A stretch of DNA of 64,000 nucleotides. Source: Vampirovibrio chlorellavorus. Its GTDB lineage: Bacteria > Cyanobacteriota > Vampirovibrionia > Vampirovibrionales > Vampirovibrionaceae. Position 1 is the stretch's first letter. Each line of letters starts with the position of its first letter. A program made the translations under genes and the position numbers. The notes under the pieces are model-generated. The model searched no databases and was not told the DNA's origin. It saw only the letters and a list, made by a program, of their open reading frames with translations. The stretch covers positions 3,922 to 67,921 of the forward strand of contig LAPX01000009.1 in NCBI GenBank assembly GCA_001858525.1, given 5' to 3'. Positions 8,542-52,475 of this stretch are shown here, piece by piece.

Positions 8542-8736
8542 GTAGAAGCGTCGCTTAATCCGACCTGGATGGCTGGTTCAGGCGGCTTTGTTTTGCTCGC
8601 ATCAACCCGCATCAAAGGGATTTGCGCCTAAAATAATTGCACATTCTGTGATTTTGAATTAATTTGGTAATGTTTGGTTCGTCACTTTCGATTTTTGGTT
8701 TGATGGGTCCTAAATTTTAAACGGGAATTTTTTGAG

Positions 8737-9225
8737 ATGATGGATTTTACGGGAGTTTCACTCTACCCGGTTGCGGATACTGCCGAGAAAAGAAAATCAG
8801 AGACGGTTAAGTCAGAGATGATGAAGGCCGATGCGTCCTCCCCTTTTATGAATCGCCCTGCGGTGAGTGCCCCGCAGACGACTGCCGTCAATCCATTTCA
8901 ATTCTATCAACCCCTTCAGCAGGATGCTTCCACCTTTCGTTTCAAGGAACCCCTGGCTCCCCCGAATCCCAATTTGCCGCAATCGGCCCAGACCCAAGTG
9001 ACGCCCTTGGGTTTGCTGCCTGCCAATTTGTCTCAACTGGTCAATGCCAATATGGAAAAGCTGGCCGGACAGATTATGAGCTTCTTTAACGGCAATCGTA
9101 AGCAGAAACCCAGTGAGGAAGAGCAGTTGAACCGACAGCTCAACGACGCCTTTGGCCTGGGTTTGTTTGGAGAAGTGGTTAAAGTGGAAGAAACCAGCAA
9201 AGGTCAAATGCAGGAAGGCGAATAG
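8737..9225 (+). CDS. Hypothetical protein (Pro/Gln-rich, no recognised domain)
   Basis: Plain ORF with ordinary composition; no family recognised. Confidence 0.4.
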   Translation: MMDFTGVSLYPVADTAEKRKSETVKSEMMKADASSPFMNRPAVSAPQTTAVNPFQFYQPLQQDASTFRFKEPLAPPNPNLPQSAQTQVTPLGLLPANLSQLVNANMEKLAGQIMSFFNGNRKQKPSEEEQLNRQLNDAFGLGLFGEVVKVEETSKGQMQEGE

Positions 9226-10570: not shown

Positions 10571-10728
10571 AAAATATTACAAAAGTTTTCGATTATTACG
10601 AATACCCTCAAGTTTTTGATCACTTTTTCGATAAGGAATTAATACCAATGGTGTATTCGATATATTTAGCATTTAAGTGAATTAGGAGTTTGTTTTCGTA
10701 GGAAGCGAGATACAACGAGGAACGAGAT

Positions 10729-11217
10729 ATGGTTGGATCAGTGATTAATTGTAAGCGTTGCAACAAAATTTTTCAGAAAGTCACTTCCAATGAACATTGT
10801 CCGGCCTGCATTCGGCTGGAGGAAGAGGAAGTCACCATACTATACCGTCGCTTGCAAAAAAGTTCGGCGGATGGGGGTATGACCATTGATGACTTATCGA
10901 CGGAATTGGAGATACCGGTGGAAACCATCGAGCGCTACTATCTGGAAGGCAAACTGACCACGGGTGTGATGTTTCTGAAGACCACTTGTCAGGGCTGTGG
11001 CGCTACCATTCGCGAAATTCAGAGAAAAGGTCGGTTTTGCGTGACCTGCAGCGAAGAAACCGCAAACAAGGCTGGTGTCGAAGTCAAACATATGCAGACC
11101 ATTCAGAAGGAAGAAGAGGCGGAGCGGAGGCGGCAGGAGCAACTACAGTTGCTGAAGAAGAATCAGCCCACCAAAACCCAGCCCCGTAAATTTGGATTCA
11201 GTCGCTCCGGGTCATAG
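10729..11217 (+). CDS. Zinc-ribbon protein resembling flagellar-operon protein YvyF (TIGR03826-like)
   Basis: Two CxxC pairs at the N-terminus ('CKRCNKIF...HCPACI..EEEE') and again centrally ('CQGCGATIRE..GRFCVTC'), the same architecture as B. subtilis YvyF. Confidence 0.5.
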   Translation: MVGSVINCKRCNKIFQKVTSNEHCPACIRLEEEEVTILYRRLQKSSADGGMTIDDLSTELEIPVETIERYYLEGKLTTGVMFLKTTCQGCGATIREIQRKGRFCVTCSEETANKAGVEVKHMQTIQKEEEAERRRQEQLQLLKKNQPTKTQPRKFGFSRSGS

Positions 11218-11368
11218 CGTTTTAGCCCTATGTGGGTATTGACTCAAAACAAGGTGAGAATCCGATCACCTTAAATAATGTTGAACTTCCAATGGTCAAC
11301 TCCGCAAAAAAGCGGGATAATAAGCTTGGGGAATTCGTGATGTTGATTCGGGAGGGGCCCAAGCGTTT

Positions 11369-12895
11369 ATGACCAATCCGGTAACGCCTGAAACAGAGGG
11401 CAATCAATCGCTTCAGGAGCCTGTGGCGACGGCTCAAAAAATTCAGGATGAAAAGCCCAAAACGCCCAAGGCGGTGAACGAGGAAACCGTGCACCGTCGC
11501 ACCAGCGTGGCCGATCCCATCCACGGGTTGATTCAGTTTGACCGTAACGATCCCTCTCAAAATCTGCTGCTCAGTGTTATGAACAGCAAGGCCTTCCAGC
11601 GCCTGCGGCGTGTGAAGCAAATGGGGCTGGCTGAATTTGTCTTTCCCGGGGCTACCCACTCCCGCTTTGTGCACAGTATCGGCTCGGCCTCCCTGATGAT
11701 GCAGGCCCTGGATCAGTTGAACCGCCATCCCAAAACCAGAGCACTGCTGGAAAGCCATTACCCAAATACCAATATCCCGCTCAGTCGGCTGTTGTTGCTG
11801 GGTATTTTGGTGCACGACATTGGGCACACCCCACTCTCCCATACCCTGGAAGACATTCTGGGGCTGGAAGAGCAAGGTTTGCTGCACGATAAGCACTGGA
11901 ACCGAAAAATTCTGACCGAAGACCCCGAACTGCAAAAAATCTGGAAGCGCTTTGGTCCGGACTTGCCCCAGGCCATGCTCAATTTTATGGGTGATGGGGC
12001 GCCCAAGCACTTTCTGGCCCAACTGATTTCCAGTCAGCTGGATATGGATCGCCTGGATTATTTGCAGCGAGATAGCCACTTTTTAGGCGTTCAGTATGGA
12101 CGCATTGAGGCGGCCCGCATCATCGCCAACCTGGAACTGGCCAAGCTGCCCAATGGCAAAGACGTGGTGGCGGTGCGAGAAGAGGCCGTTCCGGCCATTG
12201 AGCATTACCTGTTCGGGCGGCATCAGGCTTACAAAATGGCCTTGCACTCATTGGATAAAGCCTCTGAGGCCTTGTTGAAAAAGGTACTCATGCGCTTTCA
12301 GTGGGCCCGCCAGCAGGGTATTTCAACGGGGGCTCCGGCCGATGAACTGTATCAACTGATGACCGATGGCAAGACTCTGACTACTGAGCAGTATCTGCGC
12401 ATGGATGATTGCTACCTGTGGGAGAAGATTAACCAGTGGGCCAGCCACAGCGAGGATCAATTGCTCAGCGATTTGGCCAATCGCATGCTGCGTCATAACC
12501 TGCTCAAGTTTGTGGATTTGGCCAAGTACGGTTTCGGTGGGGCCAGTGTGCAGGAATTGGAACCGGTGTACGCCGCTTTAAAAGCCTATTATGAGAAGCG
12601 GGGCTTGCCCATGGAATTTTGCTTTGAGGAAACCGTAGTACATTCCAAGCCCATGTACCAGCCGCCCGATTGCCGGGAACCCATCTGGATTCGCACCACC
12701 CGGGGCAATGTGGTGGACCTGCGGGAGATTTCTTCTTTCTCCTTGTCCGTAAAGCCGGATACCAACCTCAAGCACCTGCTGTTCGTTTGGGATCGGGACG
12801 CCATGAAAGTGTTGATTCAAGCTTTGGAGCAACATTTACCCATTCCGGCCTTGCCCAAAGGGGAAGAGCATCTGGAAAACGAGGGCTGGTTGTAA
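11369..12895 (+). CDS. HD-domain phosphohydrolase, dGTPase/dNTP triphosphohydrolase-like
   Basis: Motifs 'HSRFVHSIG', 'HDIGHTPLSH' and 'DMDRLDYLQRD' are typical of the Dgt/SAMHD1-like HD family. Confidence 0.75.
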   Translation: MTNPVTPETEGNQSLQEPVATAQKIQDEKPKTPKAVNEETVHRRTSVADPIHGLIQFDRNDPSQNLLLSVMNSKAFQRLRRVKQMGLAEFVFPGATHSRFVHSIGSASLMMQALDQLNRHPKTRALLESHYPNTNIPLSRLLLLGILVHDIGHTPLSHTLEDILGLEEQGLLHDKHWNRKILTEDPELQKIWKRFGPDLPQAMLNFMGDGAPKHFLAQLISSQLDMDRLDYLQRDSHFLGVQYGRIEAARIIANLELAKLPNGKDVVAVREEAVPAIEHYLFGRHQAYKMALHSLDKASEALLKKVLMRFQWARQQGISTGAPADELYQLMTDGKTLTTEQYLRMDDCYLWEKINQWASHSEDQLLSDLANRMLRHNLLKFVDLAKYGFGGASVQELEPVYAALKAYYEKRGLPMEFCFEETVVHSKPMYQPPDCREPIWIRTTRGNVVDLREISSFSLSVKPDTNLKHLLFVWDRDAMKVLIQALEQHLPIPALPKGEEHLENEGWL

Positions 12896-13049
12896 TGCGT
12901 TCAGTTCTATGGGCAATCATTAAATCATCCTAAATATTCGGCGATTTGGTTGAGTGCAGGGTGATAATGGCAACAGTAAGGGTGCTTTCAAGGCCTATTT
13001 CATAAACCCGTCAGCGGCTTTGAGGCAATTTAAATAAGGGAAAGAACCC

Positions 13050-15749
13050 ATGATTGATATGGATAAGCTGACCACTCAGGCCCAGGATGCTTTTGTTGAT
13101 GCCCAAACCATTTTAAAGCGCTTTGAGCAAAACCAGCTGGATGCCGAGCACTTGCTGTTGGCTATGCTTGAAAATGATAAAGGGCTGGTGGCCCGTATTT
13201 TTCAACAACTGAACGTAGAAAAGCGTGATTTGAAGCTGGATTTGGAAGCGGCCTTGGCCAAACGCCCCAGAGCCACCATTCACTCTCTGGAATCCGGGCA
13301 GGTGTTCATCACTCCCCGGCTTAAAAAATTGCTGGATGAGGCCAATGGCGAAGCTGAGCGGTTGAAAGATTCTTATGTGAGTACCGAGCATATTTTGCTG
13401 GCTATGGTGGAAACCGGCGGGGAAGTCAGCGATCTGTTGCGCAAGCTGAATATCACCAAAAACAATATTTACGCCGTCCTCAAGCAAATTCGGGGTGGTC
13501 GCAAGGCGGATTCTCAAAACGCGGAAGGCAACTATCAGGCCTTGGAAAAATACGGAAAAGATCTGACTGAGGTGGCCCGCACCGGCAAGCTGGACCCGGT
13601 CATTGGCAGACAAGAAGAGATTCGGCGGGTGATTCAGGTCCTCAGCCGTCGCACCAAGAACAACCCGGTGCTGATTGGGGAACCCGGCGTGGGTAAAACC
13701 GCCATTGTGGAAGGCTTGGCCCTGCGCATCATCAACGGGGATGTGCCAGAGAGCCTGAAAAACCGTAAACTGATTTCTCTGGATATGGGTGCTTTAATTG
13801 CCGGGGCCAAATTTCGGGGCGAGTTTGAGGAGCGCTTGAAATCCGTCTTGAAAGAGGTTCAATCGGCGGAAGGCGATATCATCCTGTTCATCGATGAATT
13901 GCACACCGTAGTGGGCGCTGGGGCCACCGATGGGGCCATGGATGCCAGTAACCTGTTAAAGCCCATGCTGGCCCGTGGGGAACTGCATTGCATTGGCGCC
14001 ACCACCATCAACGAGTACCGCAAGTACATTGAGAAAGATGCTGCTCTGGAACGTCGTTTTCAGCCGGTCATGGTGGATGAACCCACCGTGGAAGACACCA
14101 TCAGCATTTTGCGAGGGCTGAAGGAGCGTTATGAGGTGCATCACGGGGTGCGTATCAAGGATTCCGCCATTATCGCCGCGGCCACCTTATCCCACCGCTA
14201 CATCAGCGATCGATTCCTGCCGGACAAGGCCATTGATTTGATCGATGAGGCTTCTTCTAAAATTCGCATGGAAATTGACAGCCTGCCTCAGGAGCTGGAC
14301 GAGATTTCCCGGAATCTCATGCAACTGGAAATTGAGGCCGAAGCACTGAAGAAGGAGCAGGACAGTGCATCTCAGGACCGTTTGAAACGGCTGGAGCAGG
14401 AAATCGCCACGCTACGGCAACAAAAGGAAAGCTTTGAAGCGGCCTGGAAAGCGGAAAAAAATGACATTCAGGCAGTTCAGCGCATTAAAGAGGCCATGGA
14501 GCAGACCCGGGTAGAAATCGATCGGGCTGAGCGGGAAACCGATTTGGCCAAGGCCGCTGAACTGAAATATGGCCGCCTGCGGGAACTGCAAACCCAGCTG
14601 GAAGCCGAAGAACGCAAACTGAATGCTGGGGTAAAAGCCGATGGCAAACCCCTGCTGAAAGAAGAAATCGACGAAGAGGACATTGCCGAGGTCATCAGCC
14701 GCTGGACGGGCATTCCGGTATCCAAGCTGATGGAAGGCGAAGTGGAAAAGCTGCTGAAAATGGAAGACTTTTTGCACAAGCGCATTGTGGGCCAAAATCT
14801 GGCGGTGCAGGTGGTCTCCGAAGCGGTGCGACGAGCTCGGGCGGGCTTGAAGGATGAAAACCGTCCCATTGGGGCCTTTCTGTTCCTGGGACCTACCGGG
14901 GTGGGCAAAACGGAGCTGACCAAGGCGCTGGCCGAGTATCTGTTCAACGATGACAACGCCGTGGTGCGCATTGATATGAGCGAGTACATGGAAAAGCACG
15001 CCGTGGCCCGGCTGATTGGGGCCCCTCCCGGTTATGTGGGCTACGATGAAGGCGGCCAGCTGACTGAAGCGGTGCGCCGCAAGCCCTATTCCGTGGTGCT
15101 GTTTGATGAAGTGGAAAAAGCCCACCCGGATGTCTTTAACGTGCTACTGCAAGTGATGGACGATGGCCGCCTGACTGACAGCAAGGGCCGCACCGTGGAT
15201 TTCCGCAACACGGTCATTATTCTGACCAGTAACATTGGCAGCCCCATTATTCTGGAAGCCCGCCTGAAGGGTACCATGGGTCAGGCTGGGGGGCAGGCTG
15301 GCAGTGATGAGGCCATGCGCGAGCGGGTCATGGAGGAAGTGCGGGCCAGTTTCCGCCCGGAATTCATCAATCGCCTGGATGACATTGTGTTCTTTGAAGC
15401 GTTGAAGCCCGAAGACCTGCGGCGCATTGTGGATATTCAGCTGAGTCGTTTGCACAAGCTGCTGGCGGGCCGTAATATCGCCATTGATCTGAGTGAAGAG
15501 GCTAAAGATTATCTGGGCCAGCTAGGCTACGACCCCATTTACGGGGCTCGCCCGTTGAAGCGGGTCATTCGCAAGTACCTGGAAAACCCCTTGGCCAATC
15601 AGTTGCTGGAAGGGCGTTTCAAGGACGGGGACTTTGTCTTTGCCGAGGTGGATCCGGTGAATGACAAGTTGTTATTCAGCCTGAAACCGGCCCCAGTGCA
15701 AGCCAGTCATAAAACCACAGAAACCGTAGCGGGGAGCCAGCGCCCATGA
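13050..15749 (+). CDS. clpB: ATP-dependent chaperone ClpB
   Basis: Clp_N repeats, two AAA+ modules ([16 protein letters not shown]) and a long middle coiled coil; 899 aa. Confidence 0.95.
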
Positions 15750-15964
15750 TTGAAGTGTCTCGATTAAACGGCAGTATTTATTTTCTGAATCCGGATTTGA
15801 TTTTGACCCTGGAAGCCACCCCGGATACGGTGATTACCCTGACCACTGGGGAGAAACTGATGGTGCGGGAATCTCCGCAGGCGCTGATTGATCGCTTTGT
15901 GGCCTTTAAGCGCCGCATTGTCTCAGAACTGCCAGAGGTCAAATCTCAGCAACCGGTCACTTGA
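15746..15964 (+). CDS. flbD: Flagellar FlbD-family protein (orphan copy)
   Basis: '[13 protein letters not shown]...[16 protein letters not shown]' matches FlbD. Its ATG overlaps the clpB TGA (ATGA). Confidence 0.7.
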
Positions 15965-26683: not shown

Positions 26684-27448
26684 TTAAGACTTAGGAAGGG
26701 CTTTTAAATGAAATTTCAGTTTTTGATAGGCGCTCTCCAAATCCTCTAGGCGTCCTGCTTCCGCCAGCGCTTTTATAGAAGGGATTTCTGCCCACTGCAA
26801 CACTTCTTCGTTACTTAACTGGTGTTCCCGTTGCAAAGCCAGAATTTGGTTGGCTTTGCTCAGCGCTTGGCCCCGGAGATCGGCATCATCACCCATGTTC
26901 TCGCTGACGGGTTCTCTGGCCTTGGTGGCCGCTGTCACTTGGCGTTCGTCTGCCGGTCGCCCTTTGCCTTCGGGAAGTGCCCTTTGCGCGGATGGCTGGG
27001 CTTTGCTTCCAGTGACAACCGGGTGACTGTCCTCTCGTTCCGGATCGTCTTCGGTGGCAATGCCAAAAAACTTCAGGTAGAAGTATTTGTTGGCCCCCGT
27101 GGTGGCCTTGTAAATAGCTTTATCAAAAGCGTCTTCGGCATAGCCGGTAAATTGGGAATCAATGACCTCGCCGGTTTCGGCATCCACCACCCGAAAGAGC
27201 AGGGTGACCGAGGCCCAGTTTTTCCCATCGGCTTTGGTGCCTATCGATTGTTCCAGGGTGGTTGGCAATACCATCAGGCCGTGGTCGTTAAGAATTTGCT
27301 TGACCGTTAAAATATCGGCTTCTGTGGCGTAGTGGTATTTGTGAAAAGCATTAAATCCCCGCTTGGGAACTGATTCGATGGCTTTTTGCACCGTTAGAAT
27401 CTTGGCGTATAGGCCGTGAGGTTTTGATTTTGTAGTGCTGGCGCTCAT
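26684..27448 (-). CDS. erf: ERF-family single-strand annealing recombinase (phage Erf-like)
   Basis: 'KAIESVPKRGFNAFHKYHYATEADIL..VKQIL...GL' and 'GYAEDAFDKAIYKATTGANKYFYLKFFGIATEDD' parallel the phage P22 Erf core. Confidence 0.8.
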   Translation of the reverse strand: MSASTTKSKPHGLYAKILTVQKAIESVPKRGFNAFHKYHYATEADILTVKQILNDHGLMVLPTTLEQSIGTKADGKNWASVTLLFRVVDAETGEVIDSQFTGYAEDAFDKAIYKATTGANKYFYLKFFGIATEDDPEREDSHPVVTGSKAQPSAQRALPEGKGRPADERQVTAATKAREPVSENMGDDADLRGQALSKANQILALQREHQLSNEEVLQWAEIPSIKALAEAGRLEDLESAYQKLKFHLKALPKS

Positions 27449-39882: not shown

Positions 39883-40515
39883 TTAGTTGTTCCATGAGAA
39901 CCAGCTCGGAAGCTGAGCCGGGTCGGCACCATAGCACCAAGGGCCGCCCCCTGCCCATTTCTGACAAGCGTTAAGGCCTGCATCACCTCGGGATGCAATG
40001 CGACCGTTATAAAACAACCAAAATTCCAGTCCTTTACCTGGGCCGTTTGTAGTGCCATCGGTGATTCTTCCATCCGGGTCAATATGGAAGTAAACCGCCC
40101 CCGTATTTGTGAGGCTCCCAAATGTGGACGGCAGGCCATAATCGACCAGGGCACCATTATGCAAACGCATGCACACCCACACATTCCCATCACAGGTCAA
40201 AGTTCCCTGCCCGTGGACACTATCAAACGTCGTGCCGGTTTCAATACGAGAGTAATTCAAATAAGGCGTCAGATCTTTGATACCGAAGGTGTCTGTGACG
40301 GTATTGCTGGCTTTGTAATTCTGATAGGCCGCGGCAACGCTGCCTACAAACTCTTTGGCAATGGCGTTGTATCGTTGATTTTGCTGGGATGAAATCAGTT
40401 TTGGGATGGTAAAAGTGGCAATTTCACCCAATATCAACAAACTGATCAGGAGTTCGGCCAAACTAAAAGCCGAGAGCTTCTGCCCCCAAACTGGGGCATT
40501 GCTGGGCAGGTTCAT
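39883..40515 (-). CDS. Type IV prepilin-like protein (class III signal; pilin or pseudopilin paralog 1)
   Basis: 'AFSLAELLISLLILGEIATFTIPK' N-methylation/cleavage-type motif with Glu at +5, Cys pairs in the C-terminal half, and an ending 'PSWFSWNN'. Confidence 0.65.
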   Translation of the reverse strand: MNLPSNAPVWGQKLSAFSLAELLISLLILGEIATFTIPKLISSQQNQRYNAIAKEFVGSVAAAYQNYKASNTVTDTFGIKDLTPYLNYSRIETGTTFDSVHGQGTLTCDGNVWVCMRLHNGALVDYGLPSTFGSLTNTGAVYFHIDPDGRITDGTTNGPGKGLEFWLFYNGRIASRGDAGLNACQKWAGGGPWCYGADPAQLPSWFSWNN

Positions 40516-40632
40516 GAACTAAAAACTCCATGAATTTATTTCACCTTCTCATGGAAGTATCGTCAAAGAGTATAAAAACTTTAATATAAAGGGAAAGATC
40601 AGGTTCAATCGGCATATACGGGATGTAAAAAC

Positions 40633-42400: not shown

Positions 42401-43924
42401 TCAGTCTGTTGAAATCTCAATGCAATTTCCATCCCGACGACGCGCGGCACTCAGGGCATTTTCCGTAGCCCGAATGAGGGAGGACACCGAGGTATGTCTT
42501 TCGCTTAAAGGCACAACCCCGGCACAGACAGTCAGACTCAAGGTAGTGTCTTGCCACACCATGGATGATTTTTCCACGCGATCCCGAAACCGTTCCAATG
42601 CTACAAACGCTTGCTCTCTGGCGGTTTGTGGCAATAAAACAGCCAGACTTTTACTGCTGTAACGGGCCAGGAAATCAATGCCCCGGAAACTTTCTTCCAG
42701 AATGTGGGAGATATGTTGCAAGGCCTGATCGCCACAAGCATGGCCCCATTCTTCATTCAATTCCCGGAATCGATCCAGACCGTTCATGGCCAAGGCCAAA
42801 TTCTGCTCGTAGCGTTTGGCCGATTTAAACTCTCGTTGCAAGACAGTCATAAAGTGCTTGTGGTTGAACAAGCCGGTCAAACTGTCGGTAATGGCCCACA
42901 TTTGTGCCTGAGAGTACAAATGGCGCAGCTTCATCAACAGGCGTATCTCGTCTTCCACCAGGTGCACGGGGAAAATTTTAGCGTAATCCACCTTTTGCTT
43001 GGCGAAAAAGGCCACTGACCCAATCAGGCCCGCATCCAGATGAAAATCTTTGACATAAACCGTTTCATAATCGGTGGGGGGGGCTTCCTCGTCCAGTTGT
43101 CCGATCACCTGCGATTCCTGCAGTTCCAACTGGGCATCGGTCAAGCCGCGTGCTTTAAAGCGTTCAAAAAAACTTTCCATCAGTTGCTCTATATGAGTAC
43201 TCGGTTGCTTTTCCCCTTCCGGCAAGTGAAATGTCAGAATGCGTGGCCCTTTGTCGGTATCGTTGTAGAAAATGGCCGCCGCATCGTATTCCAAAATACT
43301 TTCCAGCAAGCTGAAAAACATGTAGTTCATCAAATCGGTGTCATGTACCAAATCAGACAAACTACGGAATTCCACCATCAACATGGATTCCACCAAGGAG
43401 GTGTCCAGTATCTGATTCAGGCGGGTGCGGATATTGAATGGATTCTGAGCGTTGTTGGCCTTCAGCAGCAACTTTTCCTGGATATTCATGCGGTCATAAA
43501 TTTCCAGTACCATCTGGGTTTTTTGCAGCAGTTTGGCTTCGACTTCGTCTTTGCCTAAAAAGTCATCGGCTCCGGCCTTCATTCCCCAGAAACGATCCAT
43601 CTTCAGTGCCTGCTCGGCAATTAGCAGGGTGGGGATCTTGCGCATGACCGGATCATTTTTGACCAGTCGGCAAATCTGATAACCATTTAATTCCGGGGTG
43701 GCGCTCCCGGCCAAAATCATGTCCGGAATGAGTCGATAGACTTTCTGGATGCCTTCAGTGCCATCCAGGGCGTAATCGATATCATAACCGTGCTTTTCCA
43801 GCGCCAGACGACAGGCATTGACCACCAATTCGTCCTGATGAATCACCAGAACCAGCGCTTTACCTTGTTGCGCGGGCTGATTTAACTGCTCTGGATTAGT
43901 ATTACTCTCTGAAAACACGTTCAC
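42401..43924 (-). CDS. Response-regulator receiver (REC) domain protein with a degenerate, probably inactive GGDEF domain
   Basis: REC 'LVLVIHQDE...' N-terminus. The GGDEF-domain core 'DSLTGLFNHKHF...' is present, but the signature reads 'RYSSKSLAVLLP' instead of RxGGEEF. Confidence 0.7.
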   Translation of the reverse strand: MNVFSESNTNPEQLNQPAQQGKALVLVIHQDELVVNACRLALEKHGYDIDYALDGTEGIQKVYRLIPDMILAGSATPELNGYQICRLVKNDPVMRKIPTLLIAEQALKMDRFWGMKAGADDFLGKDEVEAKLLQKTQMVLEIYDRMNIQEKLLLKANNAQNPFNIRTRLNQILDTSLVESMLMVEFRSLSDLVHDTDLMNYMFFSLLESILEYDAAAIFYNDTDKGPRILTFHLPEGEKQPSTHIEQLMESFFERFKARGLTDAQLELQESQVIGQLDEEAPPTDYETVYVKDFHLDAGLIGSVAFFAKQKVDYAKIFPVHLVEDEIRLLMKLRHLYSQAQMWAITDSLTGLFNHKHFMTVLQREFKSAKRYEQNLALAMNGLDRFRELNEEWGHACGDQALQHISHILEESFRGIDFLARYSSKSLAVLLPQTAREQAFVALERFRDRVEKSSMVWQDTTLSLTVCAGVVPLSERHTSVSSLIRATENALSAARRRDGNCIEISTD

Positions 43925-44226: not shown

Positions 44227-46896
44227 ATGGACAGCTTGGACACCCAGCCATTTGAAGAGTACCCGGTGTATGATTCCATACAAGGGCTAGTTTCCGTGGG
44301 GGAGCCTGAGGACGGGTTGAGTCCATTTGCCTCAGGAGCGCCGTCGGCACGACAGGCACCCGTTTCTAAAGCCCGTAATCTGTATGATCAAGGGGTGCTG
44401 TCTAATTTCAAAAAGAATACTGATGAGGCTTTGTCCTGTCTGGAACAAGCCTATGGTCTCTTTTTACAGGAACATCATTACCTGGGGGCCATTGAGTGTC
44501 TGGTGGAGCTGGCTTGGCTGAAGTATAACAGTGGTTCCTCGGATGCTGTGCATAAATCGGCCCGGCTCTTCTCGGAAGCCCTTAAGATGATCAACGTGCA
44601 CATGCACGAGGTCGGCATAAACGAGGTTCGGGCCCGCTTGCTTCACTATCAGGGGTTGGTCAAGTATCGGGAAAAGCGTTTTGGCGAGGCGGTCAAGCAT
44701 TTTATGTACGCCCGCACCTTCTGTCACCCGGATGGCATGGAGTCTGCCCGCATTCTGGATAGTCTAGCCGTTCATTATGAGCATACCAACGATTACTACC
44801 GGGCCATTCAGTGCCTGCAAAAGGCTTTGGAAATAAAGCAACAAGCGGGTTGCGAGTCTGAGCAGGCTGTCAGTTGCCAAATCATTGGTCGGATTTACAT
44901 CCTGCGGGAAGAGTATCCGCAGGCGGAACGATTTTTGAATCAGGCCCTGCAAATTTCAGTGACGCTTCAGGATGCTTATCGTTGCGCTCGGATTAAAAAC
45001 GATTTGGTCAGACTGAGCATTTATCAGGGGCATTTTGAACAAGCGCAAGGCTTGATTGCCCAGCTGGAAGCTGAATGTACGGACAAGCACATGCGAATTC
45101 CCTTTGGGAAGAGCCAGTTTTACAAGGCCTACATTTATTACAGCCAGCTTCGCTTTGGAGAGTCTCAACAATTACTGGAAACCGAGGTGCTGCCCATTTT
45201 TAAACGGCAGCGCTACCGCAAGGGCTTTGCTATGGCCAGCCGGTTATTGGCTTGTTTGCACTATCAGGGTGGGCAAGGGGCTCGTGCCATCGAAGAAATG
45301 AGTGAAGTGATCGCCATCTTTAAAGAAGAGGGTAGTATCACGGAACTGGCCAAGACTTACTTCGAGCTGGGCAAGATTTATTTGTCTTTAAATGAGCCCA
45401 AGCTGGCCTTGGCCAGTATGCTGGAGTCTCTGCGCATTGCCGAAAGCAACGGGCTCAGCTTTATTATCAGCCACATTGAAGATGAAATTTTCCGGCTGGA
45501 TGAGCGGAAATGGCAGGAAATTGTCGAGAAGCGGGCCAATCACGACCGGGTTTTTGAAAAAGATCTCAACCTGATGGATGCCCTGGAGGCTTTGTCAGAG
45601 CAACCGGAACAACCGGCGCAAAACCAGAGCCAAAATCCCAACCAACGGCTGGTTTCGCTGTTGCGGGTTGGGCAGGCCATGTCCGCCGAACGGGATTTGG
45701 AAAAGCTGCTGACCTTGATTAAAAGTGAAACCGAGCAGGCCCTGGATGCGGAGCGCTGTACGGTATTTTTGTACGATCGGGATAATAATGAGCTTTGGTC
45801 TAAAGTGGCTACCGGCCTGGAAACCAGCGAGGAAATCCGTTTTCCGGCCCATTTGGGATTGGCAGGCTATGTGGTCAAAACCGGAGAAGTCCTGAACATC
45901 AAGGATGCCTATGACGATCCCCGGTTTAACCAGGATATCGATAAAAAAACCGGGTATCGCACCCGAAATATTTTGTGTTTGCCCATGCGCAACCGCAAGA
46001 TGGAGATCATTGGGGTTTTTCAGGTTCTGAATAAAAGGGTTTCCCACTTTGATAAGGTGGATGAAGACCTGCTAACGGCTATTTCGACCAATGCCGGGGT
46101 GGCCCTGGAAAACGCCACACTAGCCAAAGAGATGAAAATCTCCTTTGACAGTTTTGTTAAAACGCTCTCCAGCACCATTGACGCCCGAGATCCCATCACG
46201 GCGGGTCATTCCGAGCGGGTGGCCGAGTACTCTGTACTGCTGGGCGAAGAAATGGAAATGCAGCAAGATGAGTTAGAGGCACTCAAGTACGCTTCGCTGC
46301 TGCATGACATCGGCAAAATTGGCATTCAGGAGGATATTCTGAAAAAAGACGGGCGCTTGACCGAGAAAGAGTACCGTCACATCCAGAAGCATGTGTACTA
46401 TACCCACGAGATCCTGAAAAACGTTCACTTTGAGCGCCATTTGCAACTGGTGCCAGAGATCGCCGCCTCTCATCATGAGAAAATGGATGGCAGTGGCTAT
46501 CACCGGGGCCTGCAGGGGCAGGAAATTTTATTGTCCGGGCGGATTTTGGCCATTTCCGATGTCTTTGACGCCATTACTTCCCGCCGGCATTACCGGAACC
46601 GGATGGCCTTCGACAAGGTGCTGACCATTATGAAACGGGATGCCGGAACCCACTTTGATCCAGAGTGTGTGGATGCCTTTTTTAATATCCCCTTGTCCCG
46701 ATTGGGTGTGGTCTTGCTCATGGATCGGGGGAACGGGGTGGATGAGGAGGGCATGATTCTGGTGGATCAGCTGGACTCTGTTATCACCGTCGGAGAGTAT
46801 TACAAATGCCTGAACAAAGAGGCCATGAGTAAAGGGGAAGCGGATGTGCATCGGGTTTTTAGCAACTTGTACCACTTCACCGGAAAAATAGACTAA
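44227..46896 (+). CDS. TPR-repeat, GAF and HD-GYP domain protein (c-di-GMP phosphodiesterase-like; GYP motif reads GYH)
   Basis: TPR-like helical N-terminal half, a central GAF domain, and a C-terminal 'HDIGKIGI...HHEKMDGSGYHRGL' HD-GYP domain. Confidence 0.8.
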   Translation: MDSLDTQPFEEYPVYDSIQGLVSVGEPEDGLSPFASGAPSARQAPVSKARNLYDQGVLSNFKKNTDEALSCLEQAYGLFLQEHHYLGAIECLVELAWLKYNSGSSDAVHKSARLFSEALKMINVHMHEVGINEVRARLLHYQGLVKYREKRFGEAVKHFMYARTFCHPDGMESARILDSLAVHYEHTNDYYRAIQCLQKALEIKQQAGCESEQAVSCQIIGRIYILREEYPQAERFLNQALQISVTLQDAYRCARIKNDLVRLSIYQGHFEQAQGLIAQLEAECTDKHMRIPFGKSQFYKAYIYYSQLRFGESQQLLETEVLPIFKRQRYRKGFAMASRLLACLHYQGGQGARAIEEMSEVIAIFKEEGSITELAKTYFELGKIYLSLNEPKLALASMLESLRIAESNGLSFIISHIEDEIFRLDERKWQEIVEKRANHDRVFEKDLNLMDALEALSEQPEQPAQNQSQNPNQRLVSLLRVGQAMSAERDLEKLLTLIKSETEQALDAERCTVFLYDRDNNELWSKVATGLETSEEIRFPAHLGLAGYVVKTGEVLNIKDAYDDPRFNQDIDKKTGYRTRNILCLPMRNRKMEIIGVFQVLNKRVSHFDKVDEDLLTAISTNAGVALENATLAKEMKISFDSFVKTLSSTIDARDPITAGHSERVAEYSVLLGEEMEMQQDELEALKYASLLHDIGKIGIQEDILKKDGRLTEKEYRHIQKHVYYTHEILKNVHFERHLQLVPEIAASHHEKMDGSGYHRGLQGQEILLSGRILAISDVFDAITSRRHYRNRMAFDKVLTIMKRDAGTHFDPECVDAFFNIPLSRLGVVLLMDRGNGVDEEGMILVDQLDSVITVGEYYKCLNKEAMSKGEADVHRVFSNLYHFTGKID

Positions 46897-47677: not shown

Positions 47678-49354
47678 TTGTCAACACTGCTTTTTGGATA
47701 TAAACACAGGTTTAAGTTGAGGCAATCGAGGGTAGTCCCTGTCATGGATGTAATCAGTTCAGCCGTAAATACCGCATCGGTCTTGTTTCAGGAAAATGGG
47801 GAGGCCATGCAAGAGCAGGTGGAACTGCTTCGCCAGCGGATTCAAACGGCTCGGCTGGGAGGGGGGCAAGCCCTGATTGATAAACACACCCAGCGGGGCA
47901 AGTGGTTTGTGCGAGATCGCATTGAAGCCCTGCTGGATCCGGATACCCCGTTTCTGGAGTTTAGCGCCTTGGCCGCTTATGAGCTGTACGATAATGCCGC
48001 GCCGGGCGCCGGTTTGGTTACCGGCATTGGGCGAGTCCATGGCGTGGAATGCCTGATTGTGGCCAATGACGCCACCGTCAAAGGGGGCACTTATTTCCCC
48101 ATGACCGTAAAAAAGCACCTGCGGGCTCAGGAAATCGCCCAGGAGAATGGGCTGCCTTGTATTTATTTAGTGGATTCCGGCGGGGCCTTTTTGCCCATGC
48201 AGGATGAGGTCTTTCCGGATAAAGACCACTTCGGGCGTATTTTCTACAATCAGGCCCAAATGTCGGCGCAAGGGCTTCCCCAGATTGCCGTGGTCATGGG
48301 TTCTTGCACGGCCGGTGGGGCTTATATCCCCGCCATGTGCGATGAAAGTATCATCGTCAAGGGCCAAGGCACCATATTTCTGGGCGGACCACCCTTGGTG
48401 AAGGCGGCTACCGGAGAGGAAGTTTCTGCCGAGGATTTGGGCGGGGCGGATGTGCATTGCCGCACGTCGGGCGTGACCGATCACTACGCCCTGAATGATG
48501 AGGACGCTATTGGCATCACCCGCAACATTGTGCAGAATTTAAACCGGCGGCCCCAAGCCCGCTTGAATCAGGACCCGCCCGAAGCGCCCTTGTACGATCC
48601 GGCGGAAATTTACGGCATCATTAATAAAGATATTCGCAAACCGTATGATGTACGCGAAATCATTGCCCGGTTGGTGGATGGCAGCCGCTTCCACGAGTTC
48701 AAGGCCTTGTACGGGACTACTCTGGTGTGTGGCTTTGCCCGCATTCTGGGTTATCCGGTGGGCATTATCGCCAACAATGGGGTGCTATTTTCGGAAAGCG
48801 CCCTGAAGGCCGCTCACTTTGTGGAATTGTGCAATCAGCGGGGCATTCCCCTGGTCTTTTTGCAGAACATCACCGGCTTTATGGTGGGCCGTCAGTATGA
48901 GGCAGGCGGTATCGCCCGGGATGGGGCCAAAATGGTGATGGCCGTTTCCAACGCCTCGGTACCCAAGTTCACCGTGATCATCGGTGGCTCTTACGGGGCG
49001 GGCAATTACGGCATGTGTGGCCGGGCCTTTGGGGCCAGACAAGTGTGGATGTGGCCCAACGCCCGTATTTCGGTTATGGGCGGAGAGCAAGCGGCCAATG
49101 TGCTGCTCACGGTCAAGAAAGATCAGTTGGCCACCCAGGGCAAACCGGCCATGAGCTCTGATGACGAGGAAGCCTTCAAGGCCCCTACGCTGGAAAAGTA
49201 CGCCCGGGAAAGCAGCGCCTACTACAGTACGGCCCGGCTGTGGGATGACGGCATTATTGACCCGGTGGATACCCGTATGGTCTTGGGTCTGGGCATTGCC
49301 GCTGCTTTAAACGCGCCTTTCCCGGAACGCCAGCAAGGCGTATTCCGCTTTTAG
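47678..49354 (+). CDS. mccB: Methylcrotonyl-CoA carboxylase carboxyltransferase (beta) subunit
   Basis: Carboxyl-transferase domains resembling PCCB/MccB; placed in a leucine-catabolism cluster. Confidence 0.85.
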
Positions 49355-49377
49355 GCGGTTTTAGACAGTGTACAGGT

Positions 49378-50277
49378 TTGGGTCTTGCTGGTACGCTAGT
49401 GCATGCCAGCCAATTTACAGGCACACAACATCAATTGGCAGAGGAGAGGGACACAGGCGTGGGAGATTTCGTCCAGATTGCGGTAGAAGAGAAACCAACC
49501 GGGGCCATTGCCACCGTTACTCTGGGGCGGCCGGAACTGCACAACGCCTTTAACGCCCAGATGATCGCCGAGCTGCGAGAGGCCTTTGTGGGTTTCGGCA
49601 AAAATTCTCCGGTGCGGGCCATTGTGCTGCAGGGCGAGGGCAAGTCATTCTGTGCCGGGGCCGATCTCAACTGGATGCGGCAGATGGTGGACTTCAGTTT
49701 TACCCAAAATGTGGAGGATGCCCATGCCCTGGCCAGTATGTTCCGGGCCATTCAGCATTGCCCCAAGCCGGTGATTGCCCGGGTACATGGGGCGGCCTTT
49801 GGCGGCGGGGTGGGTTTGGTAGCCGCTTGTGATATGGCCTTTGCCACCGAATCCGCCAGCTTTTGCCTAAGTGAGGTGAAGCTGGGCTTGCTGCCTGCCG
49901 TGATTTCCCCGTTTGTGTTGAAGAAGATTGGGGAAGCGGAAGCTCGTCGTTACTTTTTAACCGCCGAGAAATTTACAGCCGCCGAGGCCCATCGCATTGG
50001 CCTGATTTCCGAGGTTTTGCCCGATGAAGCGACCTTGGATGGTCGCATTGAGGATATTGCAAAGGCCTTGTGCGCCAACGGGCCGGAGGCCATTGCCCAA
50101 AGTAAGGTGTTGATTGAACAGGTCTGCCACTTTGATTGGGAACGGGCCGTGGACATTACCACCAAGCTGATTGCAGAGCGTCGCATTTCCGCCGAAGGGC
50201 AAGAGGGCATGCAGGCCTTTCTGGAAAAACGCAGTCCGGCCTGGATGCAGAGAGAACAGCCAGAACATACAAAGTAA
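49378..50277 (+). CDS. liuC: Enoyl-CoA hydratase family (methylglutaconyl-CoA hydratase LiuC-like)
   Basis: Crotonase fold ('GRPELHNAF...ALQGEGKSFCAGADL'); sits between the mcc subunits. Confidence 0.75.
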   Translation: MGLAGTLVHASQFTGTQHQLAEERDTGVGDFVQIAVEEKPTGAIATVTLGRPELHNAFNAQMIAELREAFVGFGKNSPVRAIVLQGEGKSFCAGADLNWMRQMVDFSFTQNVEDAHALASMFRAIQHCPKPVIARVHGAAFGGGVGLVAACDMAFATESASFCLSEVKLGLLPAVISPFVLKKIGEAEARRYFLTAEKFTAAEAHRIGLISEVLPDEATLDGRIEDIAKALCANGPEAIAQSKVLIEQVCHFDWERAVDITTKLIAERRISAEGQEGMQAFLEKRSPAWMQREQPEHTK

Positions 50278-50327
50278 ACCGAACAATTTTAGTCATTTTT
50301 TCAGTCAAATAGTAGAGCGAGGGCACG

Positions 50328-51854
50328 GTGCAGCAGCGCTTATTTAACAAAATACTGGTGGCCAACCGGGGAGAAATCGCCGTTCGGGTCATGAAAACCA
50401 TTCAGGAAATGGGCATTCAGGCCGTGGCCTTAGCCTCCGATGCAGACTTGCAGGCGGAGCATGTGCGCCAGGCTGATGCGGTGATCCACCTGCCCGGCGA
50501 TAAGCCCGCCGACACGTACTTGCAGGGCGAAAAAATCGTTCAACTGGCCAAGGCAATTGGCGTGGATGCGGTGCATCCGGGGTATGGATTTTTATCGGAA
50601 AACGCCACGTTTGCGGAAGCGTGCCAAGCCGCTGGCATCACCTTTATTGGTCCCAGTCCCCAGGTCATTCGGGATATGGGCGATAAGATCATCGCCAAAG
50701 CGCTGATGCAACAAGCCGGTGTGCCCGTGGTGCCCGGTTGGGCCGGGGACTTGGAAACCGATTTTGCCCAGATTCTAAAAGAGGCCAATGCCATTGGCTA
50801 TCCCCTGTTGGTGAAGGCGGCTGCTGGGGGCGGGGGAAAGGGGATGCGTCTGGTGCATTCCGCGCAGGAATTAGAAAGCGCTTTTGGAGCAGCCGCTCGG
50901 GAAGCGCAAAGTGCCTTTGGCGATGCCCGGGTTTTTCTGGAGAAGTACATTACCAAGCCCCGCCATGTGGAGTTCCAGATTTTTGGCGATAGCCACGGCA
51001 ACGTGGTGCATTTGTTCGAGCGGGAATGCTCTATTCAACGCCGCCACCAAAAAATTATTGAAGAAAGCCCCTCTCCTGCATTGGACGCTGAATTGCGGGC
51101 CAAAATGGGCACTGCGGCGGTGAAAGCGGCTCAGGCCATGAGTTATACCAATGCGGGTACCGTGGAATTTATCGTCTCTGAACGCGGGGAATTTTACTTT
51201 TTGGAAGTGAATACCCGCTTACAAGTGGAACATCCGGTCACCGAGATGATTACCCAACTGGATTTGGTGCGCCTGCAAATTCAGGTGGCCGCAGGCTTGC
51301 CGTTGCCCTTTCAGCAGGCCGATTTGCGCCAAACCGGCCATGCGCTGGAATGTCGCATTTACGCCGAAGATCCGGCCCGGAATTTTATGCCCGGCATCGG
51401 CAAGCTGGCTTTTTATCGTCCTCCCAGTGGGCCGTTTATCCGGCTGGATAGCGGGGTGCGGGAAGGCTCTGAAGTGACCGTGCATTACGATCCCATGCTG
51501 GCCAAGTTGATCGTGTGGGGACCGGATCGGCAGGCGGCCCTGCAAAAAATGAGCTGGGCCCTGTCCCGCTTTGTGGTGCTGGGGGTGCCCAACAACGTGG
51601 AATATTTAAAGGCCATCGTGGATCACCCGGCATTTGTAGCCGGTCAGTTGCACACCCATTTTCTGGAGGAGCACGGGATTACCGCGCCCACCCCAGAACC
51701 ATCGGATGCGGTTTGGACCTTGGGGGCGCTCAGCGCCAGCCTGTTACAGGGTGGGTCTCAAACTAACGCGACGCAAACCGATCAGACCGGTCAGACAACT
51801 TTTTCCCCGTGGCAGCAAGGGGGCGCATGGAGGGCTTTGTCATGCCAAAAGTAA
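50328..51854 (+). CDS. mccA: Methylcrotonyl-CoA carboxylase alpha subunit, biotin carboxylase part (terminates prematurely after the SPW...AWR linker)
   Basis: Biotin carboxylase N-, ATP-grasp and C-domains; ends 'FSPWQQGGAWRALSCQK*'. Confidence 0.85.
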   Translation: MQQRLFNKILVANRGEIAVRVMKTIQEMGIQAVALASDADLQAEHVRQADAVIHLPGDKPADTYLQGEKIVQLAKAIGVDAVHPGYGFLSENATFAEACQAAGITFIGPSPQVIRDMGDKIIAKALMQQAGVPVVPGWAGDLETDFAQILKEANAIGYPLLVKAAAGGGGKGMRLVHSAQELESAFGAAAREAQSAFGDARVFLEKYITKPRHVEFQIFGDSHGNVVHLFERECSIQRRHQKIIEESPSPALDAELRAKMGTAAVKAAQAMSYTNAGTVEFIVSERGEFYFLEVNTRLQVEHPVTEMITQLDLVRLQIQVAAGLPLPFQQADLRQTGHALECRIYAEDPARNFMPGIGKLAFYRPPSGPFIRLDSGVREGSEVTVHYDPMLAKLIVWGPDRQAALQKMSWALSRFVVLGVPNNVEYLKAIVDHPAFVAGQLHTHFLEEHGITAPTPEPSDAVWTLGALSASLLQGGSQTNATQTDQTGQTTFSPWQQGGAWRALSCQK

Positions 51855-52375
51855 AACTGTCCGCACTGGGCAAAGCGCCGGAGTTGTTTGAATATCAGCT
51901 ACAGGGCAGCATTTTTTCCATTCAACGGGACGGCCAAACCCAAACCGGAACTGTAGTGCTGAGCGGGCCGGGGGAAGGCTGGCTGACACTGGACGGAGAG
52001 ATTCTGCCCTTTTTTATGACCCAGCAAGCAGACGGTCCGGTGGATCGTTTGAGCATTTGGCTGCAAGGGCAGGTGTACCATCTAGAGCGGCACAGTGCCA
52101 ATGTCCGGGCCGCCGGGGCCAAACCCTCTATGTTGTCGGATGGGGACATTAAGGCCCCCATGCCGGGCACTGTTTTAAAAATACTGGCGCAACCGGGAGA
52201 CAGCGTGGCAGCCAACCAGCCGCTGATCATTATGGAATCCATGAAAATGGAAATGACCCTGTCCGTGCCACAAGCGGGCACGGTGCAGGCAGTGCGTTGC
52301 GAGGAGGGTCAGTTGGTGGACATGGGCGCCATACTGATGCAATTGACCATCCCCCCGCCGGAGGGCAATGCTTAA
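51809..52375 (+). CDS. mccA: Methylcrotonyl-CoA carboxylase alpha subunit, C-terminal biotinyl (BCCP) fragment, -1 frame relative to the upstream part (frameshift or pseudogene)
   Basis: Biotinyl domain 'IMESMKMEM'. Its frame is shifted by one nucleotide relative to 50328-51854, with a 46-nt overlap. Confidence 0.65.
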   Translation: MAARGRMEGFVMPKVKLSALGKAPELFEYQLQGSIFSIQRDGQTQTGTVVLSGPGEGWLTLDGEILPFFMTQQADGPVDRLSIWLQGQVYHLERHSANVRAAGAKPSMLSDGDIKAPMPGTVLKILAQPGDSVAANQPLIIMESMKMEMTLSVPQAGTVQAVRCEEGQLVDMGAILMQLTIPPPEGNA

Positions 52376-52475
52376 CCCTGATTGCCATGCTTTAAGCAAG
52401 GTTTTGCCGGAAGGCTTGTTTTGACGGCCGAACGTTTTACAATTGAGGGCTAGCAGGCAAGGGAGGACAGGCGCT

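Follow-up and report, generated by a model that had tools for sequence, protein, structure and literature searches.

Order-wide pairing of clpB and flbD in Vampirovibrionales, and a distant YvyF homologue nearby, best read as dispersed motility genes

Background

Proteins of the SwrD/FlbD family are small ring-forming factors that raise the power of the flagellar motor in Bacillus. Described members, such as SwrD (YlzI) of Bacillus subtilis and FlbD of Borrelia burgdorferi, are about 70 amino acids long and have a topology of five strands and two helices, one short and the other C-terminal, with a disordered tail. Their genes sit in fla/che or flbD-motAB operons, with flbD at the head of the motor genes in the canonical operon of spirochaetes, Bacillota and many other phyla (flgE-flbD-motA-motB-fliL-fliM-fliN). 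YvyF of B. subtilis (TIGR03826, ‘flagellar region protein’) has two zinc ribbons around a helical domain and is encoded in a yvyF-flgM operon with a sigma-28/SigD-type promoter. The sigma-28 consensus has been quoted as TAAA-N15-GCCGAWAA (PMC2532724), and the subunit-interface and periphery residues of SwrD hexamers comprise Arg6, Asn15-xxx-Leu/Ile19, Glu23 and a Pro-Asp-Thr loop (PMC13232269).

Vampirovibrio chlorellavorus swims by a polar flagellum and encodes two motAB pairs together with a complete flagellar gene set that is spread over many loci, and the published table of its flagellar genes does not include FlbD (PMC4451040). Here, we analysed a 64-kb stretch of DNA (the window) from a Vampirovibrio species (order Vampirovibrionales, Melainabacteria), which encodes an FlbD protein 94% identical to that of V. 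chlorellavorus, the nearest named organism. A sequence-only reading had described a YvyF-like gene and flbD as wrapped around an HD-domain hydrolase gene and clpB, and had considered that both might be repurposed as chaperone-linked or motor-accessory factors or be relics in a non-flagellated lineage.

Results and discussion

Gene content of the locus and the FlbD protein

The four open reading frames of the earlier reading were reproduced exactly, all on one strand. Together with the promoter-like and Shine-Dalgarno-like elements, they are as follows:

10608..10634, + strand: sigma-28 (FliA/SigD)-type promoter-like element, TCAAGTTT-N11-TTCGATAA, which precedes the YvyF-like start codon by 94 nt
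10729..11217, + strand: YvyF-like double zinc-ribbon protein, 162 aa (TIGR03826 match and four CxxC pairs)
11369..12895, + strand: HD-domain phosphohydrolase, homologue of SAMHD1/EF1143-type dNTP triphosphohydrolases, 508 aa (similarity to PDB 2q14/2o6i and motifs)
12918..12968, + strand: clpB promoter-like element, CATTAAATCATCCTAAA, 29 nt, (G)ATAAT, preceding the clpB ATG by about 80 nt
13050..15749, + strand: clpB, ATP-dependent disaggregase, 899 aa (TIGR03346)
15732..15736, + strand: Shine-Dalgarno-like GGGAG within the clpB 3' end, 9 nt before the flbD ATG
15746..15964, + strand: flbD (SwrD/FlbD family), 72 aa (PF06289), its start overlapping the clpB stop (ATGA)

A Pfam scan of 45 open reading frames, covering 1.5-58 kb of the window, detected no flagellar, mot or che genes besides the YvyF-like gene and flbD, which bears out the earlier remark that flbD has no motAB or other flagellar genes nearby. 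ClpB scored 1370.6 bits against TIGR03346 (equivalog cut-off 1232.1) and has the two-AAA+ architecture with a middle domain (Clp_N, AAA, AAA_lid_9, AAA_2 and ClpB_D2-small).

The family assignment of FlbD proved firm, with 87.1 bits against PF06289 (gathering score 24.7) over model positions 1-58 of 59, and by sequence the flbD product is a normal SwrD/FlbD-family protein. All SwrD signature residues are present (R6, N15-xxx-I19, E23 and P26-D27-T28); N15, I19, E23 and P26-D27-T28 are invariant in 31 FlbD homologues and R6 is kept in at least 90% of them, whereas position 20 is Leu instead of the Glu described for B. subtilis SwrD. The AF2 model (pLDDT 87) predicts the described family topology, with five strands, helices at 16-18 (short) and 44-60, and a flexible tail. 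A Foldseek search of this model against a PDB copy without SwrD structures gave no match below E 0.1, and RemA was not among its results.

If flbD and the YvyF-like gene were decaying relics of a flagellar system that the lineage had lost, the lack of other flagellar genes in the scanned part of the window and the omission of FlbD from the V. chlorellavorus gene table would be expected. However, the congener is flagellated and motile with a full flagellar gene set, flbD is under strong purifying selection (dN/dS 0.008-0.22, at dS from 0.7 to saturation), its reading frame is unbroken in every lineage, and the YvyF-like protein has 37 invariant columns over 17 homologues and a conserved promoter-like element. 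Since the cultured relative V. chlorellavorus is flagellated, dN/dS is low and the SwrD residues are kept, flbD is not a relic, and decay is effectively refuted. The earlier reading had itself named the opposite case, an intact flagellar regulon elsewhere with these genes as ordinary dispersed members, and this is the case in the closest relative, because V. chlorellavorus swims with two motAB pairs and a full flagellar set; for the window organism, motAB and the other flagellar genes are taken from this congener and from the contested ‘phage’ record MW495066. The YvyF-like gene and flbD are best read as scattered parts of a motility regulon that is itself intact, and FlbD would still act on the motor.

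Position of flbD in Vampirovibrionales and in other phyla

Among the best 80 of 534 matches in the flbD survey, flbD-motA-motB was found in 55 of the 69 loci of other phyla, a Sericytochromatia genome included, confirming mot/fla operons as the usual home of FlbD. The longer order fliK-flgD-flgE-flbD-motA-motB..fliM-fliN, read here as ancestral, occurs in L020, L090 and L092. In contrast to these operons, the window has flbD as the distal cistron of clpB, an arrangement that, beyond what the earlier reading had described, is order-wide: clpB lies immediately upstream of flbD in 11/11 sampled Vampirovibrionales/Melainabacteria species genomes and in five distinct metagenome contexts (L001/L002, L003/L004, L006, L007 and L008), and the pairing persists at identities down to 54% for FlbD and 67% for ClpB.

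The Vampirovibrio-like record MW495066 retains motA-motB-(fliL)-fliM-(fliN), in agreement with the V. chlorellavorus gene order (Table S3), but, unlike in the canonical operon, flbD is absent upstream of motA, and it was found nowhere in the 274 kb of this record. In Vampirovibrio, motA may have a second, more divergent flbD beside it, as the survey comprised the best 80 of 534 matches. The best reading of the clpB-flbD bicistron is an order-specific, previously unreported rearrangement, neither a relic nor a new system, and probably an ordinary one. Its retention across the order, through complete turnover of the other neighbours in L008, L018, L023 and L024, somewhat exceeds what neutral hitch-hiking would predict.

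The clpB-flbD junction and the question of a partnership

The ATGA overlap that the earlier reading had noticed is real, with the flbD ATG at 15746 overlapping the clpB TGA at 15747-15749. The junction is tight (overlapping by 4 or 1 nt, or separated by at most 4 nt) in 10 of the 13 distinct lineages in which it could be read: ATGA/GTGA in five, TGATG in two and a gap of 3-4 nt in two, the tenth (L006) being taken from gene coordinates; the junction in L010 is not readable. Looser gaps of 21, 66 and 147 nt separate the genes in L024, L016 and L008, respectively. In the window, L003, L005 and L007, the GGGAG motif precedes the flbD start by 7-10 nt, and what is conserved is the nucleotide sequence rather than the encoded amino acids, because in L007 the motif falls in another clpB reading frame (GCG-GGA-GCC versus GCG-GGG-AGC). 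With an overlap and a Shine-Dalgarno-like motif that are both kept in relatives, clpB-flbD has the sequence features of a translationally coupled pair. No sigma-70-like or sigma-28-like site was found within clpB upstream of flbD.

Such an arrangement could mean, along the lines of the chaperone-linked repurposing considered earlier, that FlbD is functionally partnered with ClpB in this order, through an acquired or an ancient link, and that coupling was selected for stoichiometry or co-regulation; a hexameric FlbD ring may, for example, dock on or be remodelled by ClpB, itself a hexamer, or ClpB-linked expression may boost the motor under heat or other stress. The survival of the adjacency where all other neighbours have changed, the predominance of tight junctions and the nucleotide-level conservation of the Shine-Dalgarno-like motif speak for a partnership. 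Against it, the pairing traces to one ancestral event, so that the 11 clpB-flbD genomes are not independent; clpB-flbD was seen in 0 of the 69 loci of other phyla among the best 80 of 534 matches; the junction has relaxed in three lineages; the conserved FlbD residues are identical to those of motor-linked SwrDs; and a promoterless small gene behind a well-expressed essential gene would stay there without any functional link. No literature link between FlbD and ClpB was found. We therefore consider a partnership unlikely, and the data neither exclude nor support a functional ClpB-FlbD link. A specific form of it, in which two hexameric rings interact physically or in regulation, is unlikely as well; here ClpB would load, remodel or be targeted by FlbD/SwrD (e.g., in MotAB stator assembly or recycling), or the induction of clpB under stress would serve to increase motor power when the cell escapes or searches for prey. 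If true, a ClpB-FlbD partnership would offer a first mechanistic lead on the SwrD/FlbD family, which still lacks an explanation.

The YvyF-like gene and its sigma-28-type element

The YvyF-like protein matched TIGR03826 colinearly over nearly its full length (model positions 3-132 of 137), with an E-value of 1.2e-13 but only 51.3 bits against a curated cut-off of 124.15. The homology that the earlier reading proposed is therefore real, but by sequence the protein is a distant homologue of YvyF and not an equivalog. It has exactly the four CxxC pairs described (cysteines 8/11, 24/27, 87/90 and 104/107), contains no other cysteines, and all eight are invariant in the 17 homologues found, which all belong to the Vampirovibrio clade and are all annotated as ‘hypothetical’. 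The AF2 model (pLDDT 75) predicts two ribbons that flank a helical domain, as in YvyF, with a C-terminal helix after the second ribbon. Unlike yvyF, the window gene is not beside flgM, flgK or another flagellar gene and lies instead among polysaccharide genes, unknown genes, the HD gene and clpB.

The promoter-like element TCAAGTTT-N11-TTCGATAA is the only copy without mismatches in the 64 kb, against 0.09 expected with up to two mismatches. Although the flanks have diverged, L003/L011, L007/L014 and L015 carry the element at the same position and L005/L012 carry a variant. Both in the window and in MW495066, which encodes a group-3 SigF/FliA-family sigma factor, the same type of element also precedes type IV pilin-like (prepilin-like) genes. 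The motif is tied to these genes and not directly to flagellar genes, because a search upstream of motA in MW495066 gave no sigma-28-like site. Transcription of the YvyF-like gene by a sigma-28-type factor is nevertheless what the element suggests, and the sharing of this promoter type with pilin-like genes would place the YvyF-like gene in a motility/appendage regulon.

Probable transcription units

The YvyF-like-HD-clpB-flbD order is kept in six distinct lineages (the window, L003, L005, L007, L013 and L015). This order, the common strand and the fact that the YvyF-like gene is followed by no more than a weak hairpin lacking a U-tract are consistent with a single module, in which a sigma-28-type promoter reads through HD and clpB to flbD and co-regulates all four genes with motility. 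However, the YvyF-like and HD genes are absent upstream of clpB in the deeper lineages L008, L016-L018, L023 and L024, most of which keep the clpB element and clpB-flbD; gaps of 151 nt (YvyF-like/HD) and 154 nt (HD/clpB) each contain a promoter-like element (11293-11321 and 12918-12968); and the HD protein comes from a nucleotide-metabolism family. A single four-gene module is thus unlikely, and the wrapped-around description makes the cluster look more of a unit than it is: only in one subclade are the YvyF-like and HD genes found upstream of clpB, and each unit has a promoter-like element of its own.

The clpB element, present once in the window, is invariant in six lineages and recurs with one or two mismatches and the same 28-29-nt spacing in L008, L017, L018 and L024, where the upstream genes are unrelated; its sole GC-normal match in the metagenomes is again upstream of clpB (L173). 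For the HD gene, the element at 11293-11321 comes with a generic promoter/terminator scan that performed at chance level. As far as promoters and operons can be read from sequence, the four genes probably form three transcription units.

We regard the following account as likely. The Vampirovibrio species of the window (Vampirovibrionales, Melainabacteria) would belong to a flagellated, predatory lineage with flagellar genes scattered over the chromosome. In the ancestor of the order, flbD would have left its slot in flgE-flbD-motA-motB-fliL-fliM-fliN and become the second cistron of a clpB-flbD operon. Transcription of flbD would then start from clpB's own conserved promoter, and its translation would depend on ribosomes finishing clpB or starting beside its stop codon, via the ATGA overlap and GGGAG. 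The YvyF-like gene would be a separate unit under a sigma-28-type promoter, and the HD gene between them shows no evident link to motility.

The HD-domain protein

The known enzymes closest to the HD protein are EF1143 of Enterococcus faecalis and the SAMHD1-type HD dNTP triphosphohydrolases. Its similarity to PDB 2q14 and 2o6i spans about 400 residues, and it shares the H..HD..D metal-binding motifs; unlike these enzymes, it is extended at the N terminus by about 40 residues. It matched PDB 2q14 with an E-value of 4.8e-43 (residues 43-455), 2o6i (EF1143) with 9.4e-40 and SAMHD1 with about 1e-15, and its metal motifs (H..H / HD / D..D) are intact, with HSRFVHS at 97, HDIGH at 149 and DMDRLDYLQRD at 225. 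A Dgt-type dGTPase was rejected, as TIGR01353 gave 22 bits against 152.35, in the N-terminal HD region alone. Of the earlier label ‘HD-dGTPase-like’, the HD hydrolase part holds and the Dgt-type part does not: by sequence, the protein is clearly a homologue of SAMHD1/EF1143-type HD phosphohydrolases and a putative dNTPase, encoded by a gene without evident link to motility.

Gene content and family assignments

All four open reading frames proposed by the sequence-only reading were recovered at exactly the coordinates it had claimed:

10729-11217 (+), YvyF-like gene, 162 aa
11369-12895 (+), HD-domain phosphohydrolase gene, 508 aa
13050-15749 (+), clpB, 899 aa
15746-15964 (+), flbD, 72 aa

The FlbD family call (PF06289; SwrD in Bacillus) is firm, with 87.1 bits vs a gathering score of 24.7, and the 899-aa product is a bona fide ClpB (TIGR03346, 1370 vs 1232 bits). 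The other two calls stood in part. The 162-aa protein has four CxxC pairs, no cysteine outside them and a colinear, near-full-length match to TIGR03826 (E = 1.2e-13), but its 51 bits fall below the curated cut-off of 124, and these profile scores mark it as a distant YvyF relative rather than an equivalog. Its 17 detectable homologues all belong to the Vampirovibrio clade and are annotated as hypothetical. In the AF2 model (pLDDT 75), two zinc ribbons flank a helical domain and a long C-terminal helix follows, and resemblance to winged-helix regulators is weak and non-significant; PDB sequence searches with this protein and with FlbD gave no informative match. The supposed HD-dGTPase-like product is an HD phosphohydrolase homologue but not a Dgt-type dGTPase (22 bits vs 152); its homology to the HD dNTP triphosphohydrolases of the SAMHD1/EF1143 group is clear from its matches to PDB 2q14 (E = 5e-43) and 2o6i (E = 9e-40) and its intact H..HD..D motifs. 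As had been noted, no further flagellar, stator or chemotaxis genes lie nearby (Pfam scans of 45 ORFs, window 1.5-58 kb).

The clpB-flbD pair across the Vampirovibrionales

The nearest FlbD homologues are those of Vampirovibrio chlorellavorus (94% identity) and Vampirovibrio sp., whose contigs reproduce the gene order of the window; the Vampirovibrionales are an order within the non-photosynthetic Melainabacteria. The FlbD alignment was searched against one genome per GTDB species, and the best 80 of 534 loci were classified by tblastn. Within these 80, clpB lies immediately upstream of flbD on the same strand at 11/11 loci labelled Vampirovibrio, Vampirovibrionales or Melainabacteria, a count that takes in L014, a locus of identical gene order labelled Coleofasciculaceae, and none of the 11 has motAB within 6 kb of flbD. 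At the 69 loci of other phyla among the same 80, clpB is never found beside flbD, and the expected association of FlbD with mot genes was confirmed, as 55 have flbD-motA-motB, including loci of Bdellovibrionota, Caldatribacterium, Bacillota, Spirochaetota, Acidobacteriota, Eremiobacterota and a genome (L070) of the Sericytochromatia, the sister class. The clpB-flbD arrangement also occurs in five distinct metagenome contexts (L001/L002, L003/L004, L006, L007 and L008) and holds down to 54% FlbD identity and 67% ClpB identity. The pair is an order-wide trait of the Vampirovibrionales, and our literature search found no published link between clpB and flbD.

Three loci whose FlbD is 71-73% identical to that of Vampirovibrio come from bins labelled Coleofasciculaceae (L014), Calditrichota (L019) and Cytophagia (L020), and mis-binning or mis-classification may account for these labels. 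In L014 the Vampirovibrio gene order is complete; L020, a possible closest outgroup, retains the canonical order flgE-flbD-motAB.

Probable translational coupling and transcription units

The flbD ATG overlaps the clpB TGA, giving the ATGA overlap described earlier. We read this junction in 13 distinct lineages, leaving out the locus L010, in which the clpB stop was not located.

Table. The clpB/flbD junction in 13 distinct lineages
Junction; number of lineages
ATGA/GTGA 4-nt overlap; 5
TGATG 1-nt overlap; 2
3-4 nt gap; 2
Tight junction inferred from gene coordinates; 1 (metagenome context L006)
Spacing of 21, 66 and 147 nt; 3

In the overlap lineages, GGGAG stands 7-10 nt before the flbD start, within the clpB 3' end. 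In L007 it occupies another clpB reading frame than in the window, and so is kept as nucleotides, as a Shine-Dalgarno sequence would be, and not as ClpB residues. No promoter-like site, sigma-28-like included, was found within clpB upstream of flbD, and flbD would be expressed from the clpB transcript as its distal, translationally coupled cistron. The main rival account holds that the association reflects a real partnership between ClpB and FlbD: the pair has outlived complete neighbourhood turnover, both SwrD and ClpB form hexameric rings, and the MotA partner predicted for SwrD was not validated in a 2026 structural study (PMC13232269). However, the evidence for such a partnership is one evolutionary event, three lineages have a relaxed junction, and a gene without its own promoter, placed behind an essential one, would be retained by default; we consider it unlikely.

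Upstream of clpB (window 12918-12968), an invariant block consists of CATTAAATCATC-N-TAAA, followed after 28-29 nt by (G/C)ATAAT, whose ATAAT occupies 12964-12968 in the window. Block and spacing persist in four comparison loci with unrelated upstream genes (L008, L017, L018 and L024), and the element thus belongs to clpB, not to the HD gene. We interpret the CATTAAATCATC element as a putative promoter of clpB-flbD preceded by an operator or UP-like element; no recognisable -35 box is present, and a CIRCE/HrcA operator upstream of clpB was absent on direct reading. A metagenome scan for the clpB motif plus -10 box gave 109 matches, all chance-like and in AT-rich contigs (GC 0.18-0.45) except L173, which again lies upstream of a clpB; no regulon emerged from the scan, only clpB being found to carry the element.

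The idea of one cluster wrapped around the HD gene and clpB overstates its unity. Only a subclade (the window and loci L003, L005, L007, L013 and L015) has the YvyF-like and HD genes ahead of clpB, and the 151- and 154-nt gaps each contain a promoter-like element, so that three transcription units are more probable than one island. Read-through of all four genes as a single operon is improbable, since deeper lineages without the YvyF-like and HD genes still carry the clpB promoter element. A generic promoter and terminator scan of window 10.4-17 kb stayed at chance level.

Flagellation and the probable departure of flbD from the motor operon

FlbD and the YvyF-like protein had been proposed as possible relics in a non-flagellated lineage. 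That reading fails because V. chlorellavorus, the nearest relative, swims by a single polar flagellum with a complete but dispersed gene set: all genes for a functional flagellum are stated to be present in its genome, spread over many separate loci (PMC4451040, Table S3). The sequence-only reading had named, as a finding that would refute it, an intact flagellar regulon elsewhere to which these genes belong as dispersed members; for the nearest relative this is therefore the case. In addition, flbD is under strong purifying selection (dN/dS 0.008-0.22, with dS from 0.7 to saturation) and retains R6, N15-xxx-I19, E23 and the Pro-Asp-Thr loop, the residues of the SwrD hexamer interface and periphery (PMC13232269). 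We regard the relic hypothesis as effectively refuted.

Fuller views of three comparison loci (L020, L090 and L092) have the ancestral order fliK-flgD-flgE-flbD-motA-motB-fliL-fliM-fliN. Another arrangement is seen in the annotated GenBank record MW495066 (L204-L209; MW495066.1, 'Microcystis phage MaAM05', 273,876 bp, GC 0.54), which was deposited as a jumbo cyanophage but is plainly cellular DNA, encoding ribosomal proteins, rpoD, TCA-cycle enzymes, many aminoacyl-tRNA synthetases, smc, ftsH, suf genes and motAB-fliLMN. This dominance of housekeeping genes agrees with a comment in the ISME J that assigns the record to Vampirovibrio-like DNA and not to an intact phage genome (PMC13623518). Its motor operon runs motA-motB-(fliL)-fliM-(fliN), with motA first after a 363-nt intergenic region, and flbD is found neither at motA nor anywhere in the 274 kb. 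Likewise, Table S3 gives two motAB pairs for V. chlorellavorus, one within a motA-motB-fliL-fliM-fliN block, and FlbD is absent from it (PMC4451040). Together, these two sources indicate that the ancestral operon was broken exactly at flbD, and that flbD moved to its place behind clpB a single time, in the order's ancestor. Attempts to reach Vampirovibrio motA with a Sericytochromatia MotA query returned only taxa with canonical flbD-motAB operons; the Vampirovibrio-type MotA is ~33% identical to that query.

The genes under study are probably ordinary, functional, dispersed motility-regulon members of a flagellated lineage, with flbD the translationally coupled distal cistron of clpB after a single ancestral relocation. 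As a flagellar accessory protein, SwrD/FlbD is widespread, and an order in which flbD is parted from motAB and joined to clpB amounts to a natural experiment: flbD is shown to need no co-transcription with stator genes, and the chaperone or the stress response becomes a possible alternative partner or regulatory input for FlbD.

Table S3 also contains duplicate fliPQR-flhBA and flgBC-fliEF sets and, as with flbD, no flagellin gene (PMC4451040). This gene list does not look complete, and it may conceal a second system of flagellar or type III secretion-like type.

A sigma-28-type element upstream of the YvyF-like and pilin-like genes

The element TCAAGTTT-N11-TTCGATAA upstream of the YvyF-like gene is conserved in five lineages whose flanks have diverged, and its perfect copy is single in the 64 kb (0.09 expected at up to 2 mismatches). 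Its similarity to the sigma-28 consensus given in PMC2532724 (TAAA-N15-GCCGAWAA / GCCGATAT) is close; with TCAA as its -35, the element escaped a strict sigma-28 regex (TAAA...), which matched nothing, and only the alignment revealed it. Allowing up to 2 mismatches, there are five sites in the window, of which four lie between genes in the correct orientation, 27-94 nt ahead of a start codon.

Table. Intergenic sigma-28-type sites in the window
10608-10634 (+), TCAAGTTT-N11-TTCGATAA, before the YvyF-like gene
54233-54259 (+), TAAAGTCT-N11-GTCGATAC, 27 nt upstream of ORF 54287-54928, prepilin N-terminus GFTLSELL
40557-40583 (-), TAAAGTTT-N11-GACGATAC, 41 nt upstream of ORF 39883-40515 (-), prepilin N-terminus AFSLAELL
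8668-8694 (+), TAATGTTT-N11-TTCGATTT, weaker, 42 nt upstream of ORF 8737-9225, 162 aa, no family match

The two prepilin ORFs are paralogous type IV pilin-like genes, and the 8668-8694 site may be due to chance because it was not recovered in L003. MW495066 has three matches at up to 1 mismatch vs 0.1 expected, two of which precede prepilin-like genes, and a fourth site with the full consensus TAAACTTT-N11-GCCGATAA before a gene of no assigned function; it also encodes, at 10978-11928, a group-3 SigF/FliA-family sigma factor. The YvyF-like gene is a probable member of a sigma-28-type motility/appendage regulon. No sigma-28-like site lies upstream of motA in MW495066, so the link is to motility generally, and one to flagella in particular is only putative. 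These sites suggest that a group-3 sigma factor drives Vampirovibrio pilin genes through a classical sigma-28-type promoter, in contrast to the Synechocystis SigF promoter (described in PMC2532724), which the element before the YvyF-like gene does not match, and point to a shared group-3-sigma motility regulon in non-photosynthetic Cyanobacteria.

Two MW495066 proteins were rejected as counterparts: 00155 is not a YvyF-like orthologue at another locus (BLASTP E = 0.08), and 00015 is unrelated to the 8737-9225 protein.

Other features of the window

A divergent c-di-GMP pair, comprising a response-regulator-GGDEF diguanylate cyclase (42401-43924, -) and a TPR-GAF-HD-GYP-type (HD_5) phosphodiesterase (44227-46896, +), plausibly represents components of a motility/attachment switch of this predator. 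An ERF-superfamily single-strand annealing recombinase (26684-27448, -; PF04404, E = 2.6e-16) lies in the lowest-GC stretch of the window (26-28 kb, 0.47 vs ~0.52), which may be a prophage remnant or small island. Finally, 47678-54177 holds a leucine/isovalerate catabolism-like cluster with a carboxyltransferase, enoyl-CoA hydratase, biotin carboxylase, biotin carrier, HMG-CoA lyase-like protein and biotin/lipoate ligase.
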